Assembly: GCA_017676145.1 (NCBI GenBank)
Contig: GCA_017676145.1_3628.1
Reading direction: 5' to 3' (one strand)
Origin: a phage
DNA length: 64,000 bases
In this document: positions 1 to 27,554 of the stretch, in pieces
How positions within the stretch are numbered: position 1 is the first letter of the stretch
How the letters are laid out: each line of letters begins with the position of its first letter
The notes under the pieces: model-generated
Databases searched by the model: none
What the model was told of the DNA's origin: nothing
The model's input: only the letters and a program-made list of their open reading frames with translations
Made by a program: the position numbers and the translations under genes

Positions 1-195
1 CAAGCCGGGGCAGTAGGGGCCGGGAGACAATCACCGGGGGTGCCCGTTATTCTGCAAACGAGAATGATTATCATTCAAAATTCTAAATGAGAACTTTTCG
101 CATTTCATAAATTTAGTTAGCATGCTAATTACCTACCGTGACAATTCTATATAAAATAATAACTCCTAAAATATTCCCATATAGAAATTTTAAAA

Positions 196-376
196 ATCCA
201 TTTCTGAAAACGAAAAATCGATTTAGTCCCCAAAAATTTCAGGTCGAGCGCCGGAACGATTTCCAGAAAATCTGATTCAGAAAACGAAAAACAGATCGAG
301 TACTGAGAGATTTATCGAGAAAAATTTTCAGAAAATCCAATCTTTGAAACGAAAAACAGATCGAGTACTGGGAAAG
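196..376. repeat. Tandem direct repeats, ~65-bp unit (two full copies plus one degenerate copy); perfect 24-bp core aaacgaaaaacagatcgagtactg at 282-305 and 347-370
   Basis: Identical 24-mer occurs twice 65 bp apart; cagaaaatc also repeated at 264-272 and 329-337; degenerate copy ctgaaaacgaaaaatcga near 203-220; sits in a 696-bp AT-rich region with no ORF. Confidence 0.7.
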
Positions 377-621
377 ATGTATCAAAACCTATTGATAATA
401 ATTAACTTATTGTTATAAAAGGTCAGAAGTAAGTTGGGAAAGTTCTGGTAGAAGGGTGAGAGTGTGTGCGGAAAATCTGGAACGGTGATTTGAAGTACGG
501 TGCGAACGATAGGATGATCAGCACAGCTTATCGTGCCTGTCTTGAAAAATCCATTTTAGTTTTCGATCCATTTTCTGATTTTCTAAGGATTTCCAAATAT
601 CTGCAAATATCTGATAAATAA

Positions 622-646
622 GGGAAAATCCATTACATATTTTCCC
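622..646. repeat. Inverted repeat / hairpin gggaaaat-N9-attttccc
   Basis: 8-bp perfect arms at 622-629 and 639-646 in the non-coding leader; neighbouring short direct repeats (atccatttt x2, aaatatctg x2). Confidence 0.5.
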
Positions 647-696
647 TCATCGCCTAAAATTTTTATAATTTTAAAATAAATACTACCATAAATATC

Positions 697-1392
697 TTAA
701 ATAAATTTCACCAATGTTATAGTCTCCTTATTATTTTTCAAATCATTCTCAAGGATAGTTATTGCACGTTTAATGGCGAACAGCCAAATCTCATCTTTGT
801 TTTTAATAGCCTGAAGTTTCATCTCCTCAAGTTTCATTTCTTGCCACACCTTGTGTGCTGTCTGTGGATCATCGAAATGACCGCCATGAACAATTTTTCC
901 ATCTCGATGACAATGCACGAGATACTTGTTTACATCTTTTCTAAGTGTCACACCCAAAGGTAAATCCCCTCGTGCTGCCTGTCTTATGCCAAATAGGGTG
1001 TTTATTTGTGGTGGAACAAACATGCATGTTTCTGGGGAGTATATTCTGTTTCCAGGGATTTTCAGATCTTTGTCAAGAGTGAACTTCTTAGCGTCTCTTT
1101 TCCACTCTTGTGTATCCATCCATTTCCAGAATTCTGAGAACAACCACCAATCTTCTACAACTTCACAACCTGTATGGTACTTTGAGTTATCGCCGTAGCA
1201 CCTCTGGAATAATGCTTTCCATGTAGCATAGTGGGGTTCTGGTACTCTCTTACCATTAACAGATTGGTACATTGGGACTTTGTCTTTTAAATCGTTTACT
1301 CCACGACCACATACTTTTCTGTCTTTAACAGGTATTCCCATCAATCCCACCTTTTCCTTTGTACATGCGTAGAGGTATAGTCTTTGTAACAT
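697..1392 (-). CDS. Putative homing-endonuclease-like DNA-binding protein with AP2-like motif
   Basis: 231-aa ORF; C-terminal GVTLRKDVNKYLVHCHRDGKIVHGGHFDDPQTAHKVWQE resembles the AP2-type domain found in phage HNH-AP2 homing endonucleases; Trp/Cys-rich N-terminal half; true start may be an internal Met (e.g. 1272). Confidence 0.35.
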   Translation of the reverse strand: MLQRLYLYACTKEKVGLMGIPVKDRKVCGRGVNDLKDKVPMYQSVNGKRVPEPHYATWKALFQRCYGDNSKYHTGCEVVEDWWLFSEFWKWMDTQEWKRDAKKFTLDKDLKIPGNRIYSPETCMFVPPQINTLFGIRQAARGDLPLGVTLRKDVNKYLVHCHRDGKIVHGGHFDDPQTAHKVWQEMKLEEMKLQAIKNKDEIWLFAIKRAITILENDLKNNKETITLVKFI

Positions 1393-1666
1393 TCCATCTC
1401 CCCAACCCTTCCCAGTTCCAATTGTGGGCGTGGTACCCAGTTATGCATGCACTGCTGGAGTGATCATAGGCATAGGAGAACGCTATGCGTAACAGATGAG
1501 GCCAGTCTTTCCACGGCTGTGGTCCGTAAGCCTTTCTCCAACACCGACACAAACTAAATGTCTCAAGAATAGGCAGGATAACAAATCCATACACCACCAC
1601 CAAGATGATCAGCGCAATGATTGTCAGGAATACATACCCTGCAGTTGAAATGATGATCTCTGTCAT
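1325..1666 (-). CDS. Hypothetical membrane protein
   Basis: 113-aa ORF; hydrophobic N-terminus TAGYVFLTIIALIILVVVYGFVILPIL predicted by eye as a transmembrane helix. Confidence 0.4.
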   Translation of the reverse strand: MTEIIISTAGYVFLTIIALIILVVVYGFVILPILETFSLCRCWRKAYGPQPWKDWPHLLRIAFSYAYDHSSSACITGYHAHNWNWEGLGRWNVTKTIPLRMYKGKGGIDGNTC

Positions 1667-1863
1667 TTGTCATCCCCTTTACGAATATAGATGTGTGAGC
1701 CTGCCTGTATATAAATTTCTCGACCATCTTCTGCAAAAATATGGAATACACGGTCACCTTCGTATTCAATACGGGATATCTTCATAACGGTCTTCCCACC
1801 CGGAATGCGGATCTCATCGCCTACAGCAATGTTCCATGCAGATTTAAGCTTAAACATCAGCAC
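1663..1863 (-). CDS. Hypothetical protein
   Basis: 66-aa ORF co-oriented and tightly packed with neighbours. Confidence 0.35.
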   Translation of the reverse strand: MLMFKLKSAWNIAVGDEIRIPGGKTVMKISRIEYEGDRVFHIFAEDGREIYIQAGSHIYIRKGDDK

Positions 1864-2095
1864 CCTCCTTTGGTAGCTTGAACTCTGGCATAGCCATATA
1901 CGCTACAACAGGGTTGTGATCAAAGTAGAACTGACCGTTAATTATCCCGGTTTTACTCACATAGTTACCAGATCCTGCAAGAACAACCTCGCAAGCTCCG
2001 AAATCTACATTGCCATCCTCATCAGTCATGGCTACGATATACTTTCCTAGAGGCATGTTTTTAACTCCGTCTACAAATGTCCACCCTTTGTTCAT
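1850..2095 (-). CDS. Hypothetical protein
   Basis: 81-aa ORF in co-directional early-gene array. Confidence 0.4.
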   Translation of the reverse strand: MNKGWTFVDGVKNMPLGKYIVAMTDEDGNVDFGACEVVLAGSGNYVSKTGIINGQFYFDHNPVVAYMAMPEFKLPKEGADV

Positions 2096-2115
2096 ACTTT
2101 ATCTCCTGCACTTTC

Positions 2116-2448
2116 TTAAGGTAACCAGTAAACAATCTCGCCTTTCAGCCTCATGTCGTTTCCAACATAAATTTCCCAGCCATCCATCTTAGCAACTGTA
2201 GGCCCAAAGTCATCCGCACCCCTTACCTCTTTCCAGGCTCCGTAGTCAGGTTGCCAGATATAGAATCCACCTTCTTTGTCCCATGCTCCGTACACTACGT
2301 TTAACAGGTTTCCCATTGCAACAATGGTGGGCCGTGGGAATAATACATCTACAGATGCGCCACAATTTCGGGTATCTTTTAAGTTGCAATCCCAAAAGAT
2401 GTCTGCCAGTGTGGCGGCGATAGCTTTACGTCTTTCCAATGTTACCAT
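2116..2448 (-). CDS. Hypothetical protein
   Basis: 110-aa ORF in co-directional array. Confidence 0.45.
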   Translation of the reverse strand: MVTLERRKAIAATLADIFWDCNLKDTRNCGASVDVLFPRPTIVAMGNLLNVVYGAWDKEGGFYIWQPDYGAWKEVRGADDFGPTVAKMDGWEIYVGNDMRLKGEIVYWLP

Positions 2449-2458
2449 GGCACGATAC

Positions 2459-2650
2459 TCACTTGTTGTTAATAAGTTCTAAAACTTTCTGTCTTACTTT
2501 GTCAAGGTCTGTTGATTCAAAAACTGTGCGATATCCCCAACTTTGCCCATAGGAGTGACTGCAATCTCCGTAGCACCATTGCTCAATTTGATAGTATTCA
2601 AGGAAGGGGTGCTGTCTAACTATGATGCCATCCCGGTTAAAAATTACCAT
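2459..2650 (-). CDS. Hypothetical protein
   Basis: 63-aa ORF in co-directional array. Confidence 0.35.
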   Translation of the reverse strand: MVIFNRDGIIVRQHPFLEYYQIEQWCYGDCSHSYGQSWGYRTVFESTDLDKVRQKVLELINNK

Positions 2651-2713
2651 AATACGTCGCTCTCTGTTAGTCTGTGCGTATATTATACACTGTAGTTTTC
2701 AGATGTCAATCTT

Positions 2714-2965
2714 TTACAGGTTACTCCAGTATACTCGGCATTTACATTTCGGGCAATGAGGCTCTTTTATGTAATAACCATCAGTCTTTGGAACACTTTT
2801 TGGTGCAGTTTTAAGATTGTACCGAGTAAAACACCGGAAGCAGGTTACCTCTCCAACCTGTTGATCGTTTATCCACGCGCCAGAGTAAAGCTCTCTCTTG
2901 TTTCTCATAATTCTCTCCCAAATCCTCTGCAATCTTATACCAAAATCTCCAGCCAGAAAGCACAC
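2714..2965 (-). CDS. Hypothetical zinc-ribbon protein
   Basis: 83-aa ORF with CxxC...CxxC spacing (CFRCF ... CPKCKC). Confidence 0.35.
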   Translation of the reverse strand: MCFLAGDFGIRLQRIWERIMRNKRELYSGAWINDQQVGEVTCFRCFTRYNLKTAPKSVPKTDGYYIKEPHCPKCKCRVYWSNL

Positions 2966-3159
2966 GGGAACACTTTGATGATTGAATCTTTACCTGGTTC
3001 AGAAGTTCTTTTTCCGTAGGGTAGGTAGAAATGCCCTCCTGCAGATTCGAATATAGCTCCTTCGGTTGTATCTATCACAGCCAGAATTAAGATTTTAGTC
3101 TCCATAGTGTTCCCCTGTTTTAGTCGTTGTGGTGACTATACCACCTCAGAAGATGGTCG

Positions 3160-10977: not shown

Positions 10978-11296
10978 TAGTTCAGGTAGGTCGTTAAGCT
11001 ACCCCGCACCATTACGTGCATAGCCATACAGTTTCCCGTATGGATCGGACTATCTCACTGCCTTGTCACCAAGGCACCTCTCATTTCGACCGCACTTGCT
11101 GGCCTACTCTACTCGCTTCTTCACCCCAAACTGTGTTGGAGCTATGCTTTCGATAGTCTCTGAACGTTCATCCTCTCGGATGCTTCGCTGCGGATTAGCA
11201 TATTGAGCTTTTACCATGGTTAGGTGTAAAAGTCAACTTAGCCTTCCCGTCAATTAAAGAGGTTTTCGACGTGCATCACTGCACGAAGCCACAATG

Positions 11297-27483: not shown

Positions 27484-27512
27484 ACTATATCGTGGATTTA
27501 GAGTAAAGTCAA
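27484..27512 (-). promoter_or_regulatory. Sigma70-like promoter (minus strand) TTGACT-N17-TATAGT
   Basis: Reverse complement of 27484-27512 reads TTGACT, 17-bp spacer, TATAGT; about 40 bp upstream of the ATG at 27443. Confidence 0.5.
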
Positions 27513-27525
27513 CACGTTTTTGAGG

Positions 27526-27554
27526 TTGACATATTCCCAGGCACTTGATAAGAT
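27526..27554 (+). promoter_or_regulatory. Sigma70-like promoter (plus strand) TTGACA-N17-TAAGAT
   Basis: TTGACA at 27526-27531, 17-bp spacer, TAAGAT at 27549-27554; about 30 bp upstream of the ATG at 27586; back-to-back with the minus-strand promoter. Confidence 0.5.

Follow-up and report, generated by a model that had tools for sequence, protein, structure and literature searches.

Iteron and transcription-activated origins, such as lambda ori, P1 oriR, T4 oriE/oriF and the T7 primary origin, combine a unique non-coding locus carrying direct repeats and dyads with adjacent A/T tracts, a promoter that fires into the site and possible host-factor sites, and in both P1 oriR and oriC the repeats are accompanied by clustered GATC. 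Fur-regulated small RNA loci, such as ryhB of Escherichia coli and prrF1-prrF2 of Pseudomonas, place a short structured RNA element beside a 19-bp Fur-type palindrome. Both descriptions bear on the locus reported here, which spans positions 180–650 of a 64,000-nucleotide stretch of phage DNA (the window) and is the right-hand two-thirds of a gene-free module of ~1–1.2 kb in rV5-like phages (Vequintavirinae). The module differs from iteron origins in that its units are compound and lie 63–78 bp apart, whereas iterons of 17–22 bp are arrayed at helical pitch; in that it has no DnaA box and, in this genus, no adjacent initiator gene; and in that its candidate host factor would be Fur instead of DnaA, IHF or Fis. 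As in prrF1-prrF2, the promoter-hairpin-box unit of Vequintavirus is tandemly duplicated, with the copies ~135 bp apart, but unlike the ryhB and prrF loci the module shows no similarity to host DNA, carries its box downstream of the best-conserved promoter and not over it, has no evident Hfq-type terminator and sits in a virulent phage. The module thus resembles both classes without conforming fully to either. We read it tentatively, and with somewhat less than even confidence, as a replication origin or origin-control region, that is, as a cis-acting array of protein-binding DNA.

The module, its hairpin and its Fur-like boxes are not described in the searchable literature, which likewise holds no mapped origin or packaging (pac) site for rV5-like phages and, on transcriptomes, termini, Fur boxes and origins of the subfamily, offers only PhageTerm statements and the rV5 promoter and terminator tables. 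Of the 33 promoters and 20 terminators tabulated in the rV5 genome paper, none falls within this gap (PMC3606486). The elements of the module in the window, and the insertion that bounds it here, are listed below; negative positions lie left of the window start, and L001 coordinates relate to them as L001 5824–5852 to -176 to -148 and L001 5534–5710 to -467 to -290.

1–54, + strand: 3' four-fifths of a GC-rich hairpin of ~55–60 nt, the first bases of which lie left of the window
57–75: Fur-like box 1, the 19-bp palindrome AACGAGAATGATTATCATT, with two mismatches to AATGATAATnATTATCATT
86–104: Fur-like box 2, weaker, AATGAGAACTTTTCGCATT, 29 bp past box 1 and with three mismatches to the phage box
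180–234, + strand: repeat A, a degenerate copy (62% identical) 74 bp upstream of B, carrying AAAAATCCATTTCTGAAAACGAAAAATCGAT
254–308, + strand: repeat B, with core GAAAACGAAAAACAGATCGAGTAC and GATC at 294
319–373, + strand: repeat C, 65 bp after B, with the identical 24-nt core at 347–370
376–545: fast-evolving spacer of ~170 bp and fixed length, AT-rich at 381–420 and, beyond that, with strong G>C on the + strand
546–601: island 3, AAAAATCCATTTTAGTTTTCGATCCATTTTCTGATTTTCTAAGGATTTCC, an incomplete copy of the repeat unit that is inverted in part
618–650, - strand: hairpin and predicted intrinsic terminator, with perfect 9-bp arms at 621–629 and 639–647 (12 nt at 92% over 618–650)
602–1358, - strand: HNH insertion with an open reading frame (ORF) at 697–1392 (231 aa), not part of the module but setting its right border here

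Repeats B and C are 80% identical at a spacing of 65 bp and share an exact 24-nt core, AAACGAAAAACAGATCGAGTACTG (282–305 and 347–370), which has no other occurrence in the 64-kb window and was matched in 0 of 100 shuffles; with the degenerate copy A, they provide the three direct repeats at one locus (180–373) that are the minimum for an iteron origin. Shorter motifs are reiterated around them. AAAATCCATT occurs exactly at 193, 546 and 625, and GAAAATC at 266, 331, 471 and 624, giving four occurrences within 150–660 against 0.07 expected from the remaining 70 kb, which is ~60 times the density elsewhere and makes this the densest such cluster in the examined sequence. A first-pass annotation, made from the letters of the window, had described a direct repeat of ~65 bp with perfect 24-bp cores, shorter reiterated motifs and an inverted repeat within the largest non-coding stretch. 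All of these were recovered, the direct repeat with A as a third, degenerate copy and the inverted repeat as the perfect 9-bp arms listed above, and a check for the same repeats at many unrelated sites found the core and the GAAAATC cluster confined to this locus. Positions 1–696 are without any ORF of at least 60 aa in all frames and form the longest such run in the window, the next (11028–11293) measuring only 266 bp. In Escherichia phage YP-6 nothing is annotated between genes 70 and 71, an intergenic gap that corresponds to -290 to 696, and the gene-free stretch therefore extends at least 290 bp left of the window start; it may reach -470, given that the small ORF annotated at -467 to -290 has frameshifting indels in relatives. 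The same annotation had called the stretch a leader and had set it where the early region begins or ends. This part does not hold, because the annotated genes for several kb on both sides of the gap all lie on the minus strand, and the gap is hence internal to a leftward block of small early genes. GC content falls to 24% at 101–200 and is 30–31% at 301–450, with an AT-rich patch at 381–420. Two other identities considered for the repeats were rejected: a CRISPR-like mini-array, since the similarity of B and C covers 55 of 65 nt and the "spacers" are themselves homologous, and a middle or late promoter motif used throughout the genome, which is at odds with the restriction of the motif to this locus.

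An alignment of the region from 21 distinct Vequintavirus genomes resolves three constrained islands (184–220, 264–336 and 546–600), with diversity of 0.005–0.06 overall. Diversity is 0.005–0.017 at 181–220, with 184–220 almost invariant; 0.005 at 281–300 and 0.04–0.05 across the other parts of 261–340, with 264–299 almost invariant, 309–336 and 357–369 invariant, and 337–356 variable within the genus; and 0.005–0.06 at 555–594, with its lowest value (0.005) at 555–574. The spacer at 376–545 reaches 0.17–0.31 (mean 0.26), so that the repeat islands are 5- to 50-fold less variable. In the same genomes, four neighbouring genes show diversity of 0.01–0.07, 0.003–0.03 and 0.08–0.19 at codon positions 1, 2 and 3, respectively. 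With values below those of codon positions 1 and 2 of their neighbours, the islands are more constrained than the positions that determine amino acids, and the spacer evolves at least as fast as the silent sites of these genes. The repeat islands are under strong purifying selection, and the repeats are present in all of the ~117 Vequintavirus records. The spacer keeps its composition despite its drifting sequence, with a GC skew of +0.33 to +0.51 in 21 of 21 genomes (+0.65 at 401–500 in the window). Indels of 1 and 2 nt occur across 376–546, and a poly-A run at 544 varies in half of the genomes; given these 1–2-nt indels, no reading frame is conserved through the spacer.

The annotation of ORFs in the gap is inconsistent across ~20 records, which show differing small ORFs, differing strands, or none. 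The frame of FV3 ORF183 and rV5 ORF199 (382–636) is shortened to 16 codons in the window, and island 3 is retained, identical, where the annotated ORF183 is truncated; both this frame and that of YP6_00070 and rV5 ORF197 (-467 to -290) carry frameshifting indels among relatives. If neither is real, the true gene-free region may measure ~1.2 kb. A third frame, the 92-aa FV3 ORF182 (rV5 ORF198, phrog_14993; minus strand, 74 to about -205, L001 5793–6074), is annotated in most records. Its diversity is flat over codon positions 1–3 (0.029/0.038/0.048), as is that of an overlapping + strand frame of 43 codons, and it is frameshifted in rV5_ev156; ORF182 is probably not a gene. A protein-coding gene in the gap was rejected on the basis of the indels, the inconsistent annotations and the flat codon-position diversity. 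The region reads as non-coding and its islands as functional at the level of nucleic acid, and the "hypothetical proteins" phrog_14993, FV3 ORF183 and rV5 ORF197/199 are likely mis-annotations better read as regulatory DNA or RNA.

Tracing the locus beyond the genus via the flanking protein ORF184 failed, this gene being confined to 117 Vequintavirus records; the DNA segment that holds the hairpin and box worked. A search with the 300 bp that straddle the window start gave matches in 267 phage records. Outside Vequintavirus, the match comprises a piece of 55–75 nt (window ~20–95) at 78–90% identity, which is never annotated. It is found in Certrevirus, Seunavirus, Henunavirus, Avunavirus, KP12-like Klebsiella phages, Phapecoctavirus, and Shewanella and Aeromonas phages; in 9 of the 9 non-Vequintavirus genomes examined it lies within a gene-free gap of 0.8–1.3 kb in a leftward gene block. 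Pattern scans of IMG/VR yielded only two further loci. A rightward promoter, CGCTTGCAA-N17-TATATT and variants thereof, is conserved across genera, its hexamers kept and its spacer varying in sequence at a length of 16–17; the hairpin begins at the expected start point of this promoter and carries GAGACAAWCACC in its loop. The accompanying 19-bp palindromes, AATGAGAATgATT(C/A)TCATT, number one to four per genome, lie 1–2 positions off the enterobacterial Fur consensus and keep a 29-bp pitch where there are several, as in CR8 and nepoznato, with four boxes each. The equivalent of box 1 in nine other phages, whose hosts range from E. coli to Shewanella and Aeromonas, shows 0–1 mismatch to the phage consensus in eight, and three in PhAER-3.

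The repeats of the other genera carry the core YCGATCGAG(A/T)MC in all copies and are homologous to repeats B and C. Three-repeat spacings are 63/78 in CR8 and KaOmega, 67/75 in SSE121 and Av-05, 67/74 in KP12 and 74/65 in the window, and the repeat blocks outside the genus hold 5–6 GATC sites per 140–210 bp. Across genera, the unit has a constant order, consisting of an A5T6 tract, a purine-rich run ending in ATACG, 17–18 variable A/T-rich bases and the core YCGATCGAGWAC; short dyads in the variable middle shift register between copies, and the flanking blocks stay at a fixed distance. GAAAACGAAAAAC-AGATCGAGTAC is common to repeats B and C of the window and to copy 3 of CR8 and KP12. A partial fourth copy lies 224–294 bp beyond the third repeat in SSE121 and KP12; its counterpart here is island 3, and the fourth copy of KP12 also has AAATCCATTTC, a motif present in both repeat A and island 3. 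Six elements, which on the + strand follow one another as promoter, hairpin, boxes, repeats, spacer and partial copy, are conserved across genera, in Certrevirus, Seunavirus, Avunavirus and KP12-like phages as in Vequintavirus, and the order and spacing of the array hold in at least five genera; in Vequintavirus, the terminator hairpin comes after the partial copy. Because conserved blocks at a fixed distance around a freely varying middle suit protein-DNA recognition better than an RNA fold, we infer that the repeats act as DNA, through repeated binding by a sequence-specific protein, and the conservation of the module where the flanking gene ORF184 is not conserved argues for an autonomous function in cis.

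The left-hand part of the module is almost invariant from -148 to +95 and contains two similar promoter-hairpin-box units ~135 bp apart. A simple position-weight promoter scan, calibrated on published rV5 promoters (13–16 bits; PMC3606486, Table S4), found 25 sites of at least 13 bits on the minus strand of the leftward block (-6000 to 27500, 33.5 kb) and one on the + strand. This lone strong + strand promoter, TTGACA-17-TGgCACAAT at -176 to -148 (L001 5824–5852), is invariant in 20 relatives and was independently recovered by a consensus scanner; a second + strand promoter, TTGCTT-16-TGtgaTACTAT, lies at -32 to -5, left of the window start, and is the version in this phage of the hairpin promoter conserved across genera. 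Within 196–646, where clustered early promoters had been proposed, the scan gave no sigma-70 site above ~8 bits on either strand, the promoters of the module sitting to the left, and a candidate at 392–419 (TTGATA-16-TGtTATAAA) was set aside as unconserved in relatives. The purine fraction of the + strand is mostly 0.5–0.64 between -150 and +525 (0.46–0.47 near +100 to +150) and ~0.43 outside; in other genera, the + strand purine excess is weaker. The module is therefore a unit of rightward polarity set within a leftward block.

The GC-rich hairpin comprises an outer helix (AAUAAC/GUUAUU), the pairing of GGGCA (8–12) with UGCCC (41–45), a loop, GAGACAAUCACC, and a tail, GUUAUUCUG, and the same fold is obtained from alignment and folding of 11 genomes. 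Its outer helix runs through the series AUAGC/GCUAU in CR8, AUAGC/GUUAU in KP12 and AUAAC/GUUAU in the window phage. Across seven genomes from outside Vequintavirus, pairing in this helix stands at 89%, compared with 20–57% when partners are slid, and six of six one-sided changes yield G-U pairs, consistent with the + strand only; a shuffle control for covariation in this helix was non-significant (145/500). The pattern is suggestive of an RNA helix. Another hairpin candidate in the second unit, ACGAT...ATCGT, showed no compensatory changes on inspection and was dropped. Box 1 departs from the phage consensus, AATGAGAATnATTCTCATT, at two positions and lies in a segment (41–90) that is invariant in 21 relatives. 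The box of the left-hand unit (L001 5924–5942), GAGAACGATTATCATTATC, has two mismatches to GATAATGATWATCATTATC, a register in which shuffles gave any match in 2 of 200 cases; the window box at 57–75 has four mismatches in that register, and is therefore not reported at a threshold of three or fewer, and it matches the Fur-box consensus in the AATGATAATnATTATCATT register.

At the right border, relatives without the insertion carry on the minus strand, after the stop of the upstream gene, AAGGAGGA, a 14-nt loop and TCCTCCTT, followed by TTGATATTTT. Three versions of the stem occur (AGGAGGA/TCCTCCT, CAGGAGAA/TTCTCCTG and AGGGAAAAT/ATTTTCCCT). In 12 distinct sequences, all seven tested pairs are formed and three of the seven are changed on both sides, a score reached by 0 of 500 shuffles, with slid partners pairing in 71–91% of cells. 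The window's own tail, TATTTATC, is weak, and a simple terminator scanner missed the hairpin there; on the + strand, the tail is not U-rich. The covariation of the helix and the U-rich minus-strand tail identify the 618–650 hairpin as a predicted intrinsic terminator for leftward genes coming from the right.

If the module is an origin, its three repeats would be iteron-like initiator sites beside easily melted A/T tracts, the rightward promoter and hairpin could provide transcriptional activation or priming, the Fur-like boxes might recruit a host protein, and the terminator would keep incoming early transcripts from running into the site. The first-pass annotation had also proposed an origin or regulatory hub, and that proposal is supported in part, the locus being non-coding, locus-specific and conserved, with iteron-like repeats and a layout shared across genera; what falls away is the edge location, the promoter cluster and any support from a DnaA box. 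A site at fixed genome termini is unlikely, the genus being reported as circularly permuted and headful (PMC8407724, PMC13211470). A number of observations weigh against an origin. The DnaA box, TTWTNCACA, has zero matches in 1–700 and four in the whole window, below chance. The Vequintavirus module has no intact + strand ORF and no initiator gene adjacent to it, and the small + strand ORFs found beside the module in other genera have no clear mutual similarity. On the rV5 map, the replication genes lie ~10–20 kb away, and GC-skew analysis of rV5 revealed only skew changes that track the direction of transcription and did not locate the origin (PMC3606486). The repeat unit, at 65–75 bp, is three times as long as classical iterons of 17–22 bp, and GATC is weakly enriched in the repeat region of the window, with four sites per 450 bp. 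Moreover, four phages (nepoznato, Hena1, Shewanella phage 1/4 and PhAER-3) have the hairpin and box without the GATCGAG repeats, and since they retain only that half, the two halves of the module may be functionally separable. Lastly, a function at the level of RNA would also agree with the rightward promoter, with the strand bias and with the G-U changes in the hairpin, and the placement of an origin here is one that we infer from sequence features.

Small + strand ORFs adjoin the module in nepoznato, KP12, Shewanella 1/4, Av-05 and PhAER-3, and in five of the nine genomes a small rightward ORF occupies the left end of the gap. Rightward ORFs left of the module were recorded at L025 1010–1276, L026 1146–1379, L027 1068–1277, L030 739–1002 and L031 1008–1202, all on the + strand. 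The small products of KP12 and SSE121 share a loose ALxxLxxxGFxxxxVxxxNG pattern and could be winged-helix DNA binders.

The rightward polarity of the module invites its reading as a non-coding RNA gene of ~0.7–0.8 kb, transcribed from the promoters at -176 to -148 and -32 to -5 up to the hairpin at 618–650. The repeats and island 3 would then act in the RNA, as multivalent protein sites or through pairing of B and C with island 3, and the C-poor composition would guard the untranslated transcript from Rho. This is unlikely, albeit with several observations in its favor: the unique, invariant + strand promoter stands amid 25 minus-strand promoters, the purine-rich + strand starts at that promoter and stops near 550, the G>C skew of the spacer is kept in 21 genomes where the sequence is not, the hairpin is kept across genera with one-sided changes that all give G-U, and the arms of island 3 are complementary to B and C (265–275 with 574–584; 322–337 with 577–592). 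Yet global folding gives no signal (z = -0.72 on the + strand and -0.34 on the minus strand; -1.36 for the hairpin region), covariation in the outer helix is not above shuffles, the 618–650 hairpin has no U-tract on the + strand, and the repeat dyads shift register at a fixed block distance, as expected of protein-DNA sites. Rfam also has no match, with none at E<=1 for 1–3000 and only a chance small nucleolar RNA match (E=1.1) for L001 5000–7000; a tRNA search found none. The boxes suggest another reading, an iron-responsive switch in which host Fur would occupy the boxes within the spacer of a leftward promoter-like element, TTGAAT-18-CAGAAT (78 to 49), and downstream of the rightward promoters. 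The hairpin RNA or RNAs and the genes to the left would be set by host iron status, and the three upstream repeats would be an operator or enhancer for a second regulator. Both the left-hand box (L001 5924–5942) and that at 57–75 are two mismatches from the 19-bp enterobacterial consensus, from which the boxes depart by 1–2, promoter-like hexamers flank the box on both strands, and the box is near-identical in phages of E. coli, Klebsiella, Salmonella, Cronobacter, Erwinia and Shewanella. The occurrence of a similar box in phages of such distant hosts fits a conserved host protein, instead of a co-evolving phage protein, as the expected binder. Nevertheless, the leftward promoter-like sites are weak (8–11 bits against 13–17 for early promoters) and poorly conserved between genera, the flanking gene tested is found in one genus only, which leaves no conserved regulated target besides the hairpin, and a switch for a few small genes leaves three near-invariant islands of 40–75 bp unexplained; we consider such a switch, too, an unlikely account of the whole. 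A compound version is more doubtful still: in rV5-like and related myophages of many Gammaproteobacteria, a new phage RNA hairpin of ~55 nt, a series of host Fur sites and the three compound iteron-like repeats would together make the origin, or a master early/middle switch, answer to the iron status of the host. If it were true, a virulent phage would read the Fur state of the cell to set when, and how strongly, to replicate.

In well-studied headful phages, pac sites lie in or beside the small-terminase gene. A pac site at this locus, with repeats that would bind the small terminase and GATC coupling cutting to Dam methylation as in P1, clashes with that placement and is improbable, even if the array is unique and has GATC in every core. 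As at P1 pac, clustered short GATC-bearing elements lie on both sides of a spacer, but the module is far from the terminase genes and has much longer units, and no fixed end is reported for the genus. Packaging in the genus is indeed headful with permuted ends (PMC8407724, PMC13211470); the terminase genes are ~60 kb off on the rV5 map (PMC3606486), and PhageTerm reports show no fixed end here. Three GenBank records (MG065682.1, MG065655.1 and LC739538.1) begin or end 80–270 bp before the first position of the window, at about -266, -136 and -80, which could reflect a preferred DNA end or assembly breaks at a poly-T tract or GC-rich hairpins. Scarcely more probable is a mere transcription boundary, made up of the terminator at 618–650, a C-rich, G-poor Rho-loading segment on the leftward RNA (545–420) and U-rich pause sites in the repeats, which jointly would halt early transcription. 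The terminator helix covaries and its minus-strand tail is U-rich, and, read as leftward RNA, the spacer has ~31% C and 12% G in every genome; Rho and pause sites, however, do not require 40–75 nt of invariant sequence, nor three copies at conserved spacing in five genera, and the terminator is already a component of the origin reading. Finally, FV3 and rV5 annotate small ORFs here and tandem duplications arise easily, which would allow for a decayed gene remnant or a neutral tandem duplication. This explanation is refuted by the conservation data and retains next to no probability, given islands that are 5- to 50-fold less variable than the spacer and lie below codon positions 1 and 2 of their neighbours, and an architecture conserved across genera.

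Two further systems offer partial parallels. The pseudo-ToxI locus of phiTE, a type III antitoxin mimic in a Certrevirus (PMC3475682), likewise consists of non-coding repeats and occurs in another member of the subfamily, but it adjoins tRNA and terminase genes and consists of 36-nt head-to-tail units, with chance 9-mer matches only. A type III antitoxin or pseudo-ToxI mimic was accordingly rejected for the module, on its period of 65–74 bp, the chance nature of the 9-nt matches (E ~0.2–0.4) and the lack of synteny. Centromeres of the F-plasmid sopC type also have direct repeats, tens of bp long, that each enclose an inverted repeat, to which in sopC a single protein binds; the module differs in belonging to a virulent phage without known partition need, and no ParA or ParB genes were seen in the annotated flanks nearby. 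Derivation from host DNA was also rejected, a search of 5,426 E. coli genomes giving zero matches to the region and true plasmids none; the sole E. coli "plasmid" match is itself an rV5-like phage genome.

The window comes from a Vequintavirus, an E. coli myophage of the rV5 type; over positions 1–3000 it shares 98% identity with Escherichia phage YP-6 and 92–97% with FV3, JES2013 and more than 100 other Vequintavirus genomes. Some 16–17 records labelled "Campylobacter phage" (MG0656xx) are 93% identical to the window phage over 3 kb and are probably mislabelled or derived from contaminated lysates. Biocontrol of E. coli O157 and therapy cocktails make wide use of rV5-like phages, and the hairpin and box part of the module, at least, is present in more than 250 sequenced genomes. 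A pair of repeats alone would be ordinary; a subfamily-wide module with host-Fur-like boxes in virulent phages is one that a specialist would not expect, and the locus, conserved and easy to recognise, offers a concrete target for work on origin function, for the engineering of replicons and reporter phages, and for the action of a host iron regulator on a virulent phage.

The HNH insertion that borders the module in the window is carried by only four records of the ~117 relatives. Against FV3, positions 1–601 and 1359–3000 align at ~95%, and 602–1358 stand in place of ~100 unrelated bases. A tandem pair of the 10-bp sequence CAAATATCTG (594–613) lies exactly at the left junction. The ORF at 697–1392 matches phrog_953, "HNH endonuclease" (E=5e-65), over the C-terminal half of the profile only, and has no Pfam match; at its 5' end it overlaps the adjacent gene's 3' end, and the C-terminus of that gene is unlike that in FV3. 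In SSE121 and Hena1, too, HNH genes abut the module on its right, which points to a recurrent homing site there. Outside the window, a cluster of CCWGG (Dcm/EcoRII) sites at ~L001 5640–5850 (-360 to -150) reaches 5 per 250 bp in YP-6, forming the densest 250-bp segment in 70 kb, and 8 per ~300 bp in bov10K2 and JES2013; one site lies within the spacer of the rightward promoter. Further into the window, back-to-back strong promoters on opposite strands (27484–27554) coincide with a switch in gene orientation and GC skew, and appear to correspond to the divergent pair reported for rV5 between its genes 10 and 11.

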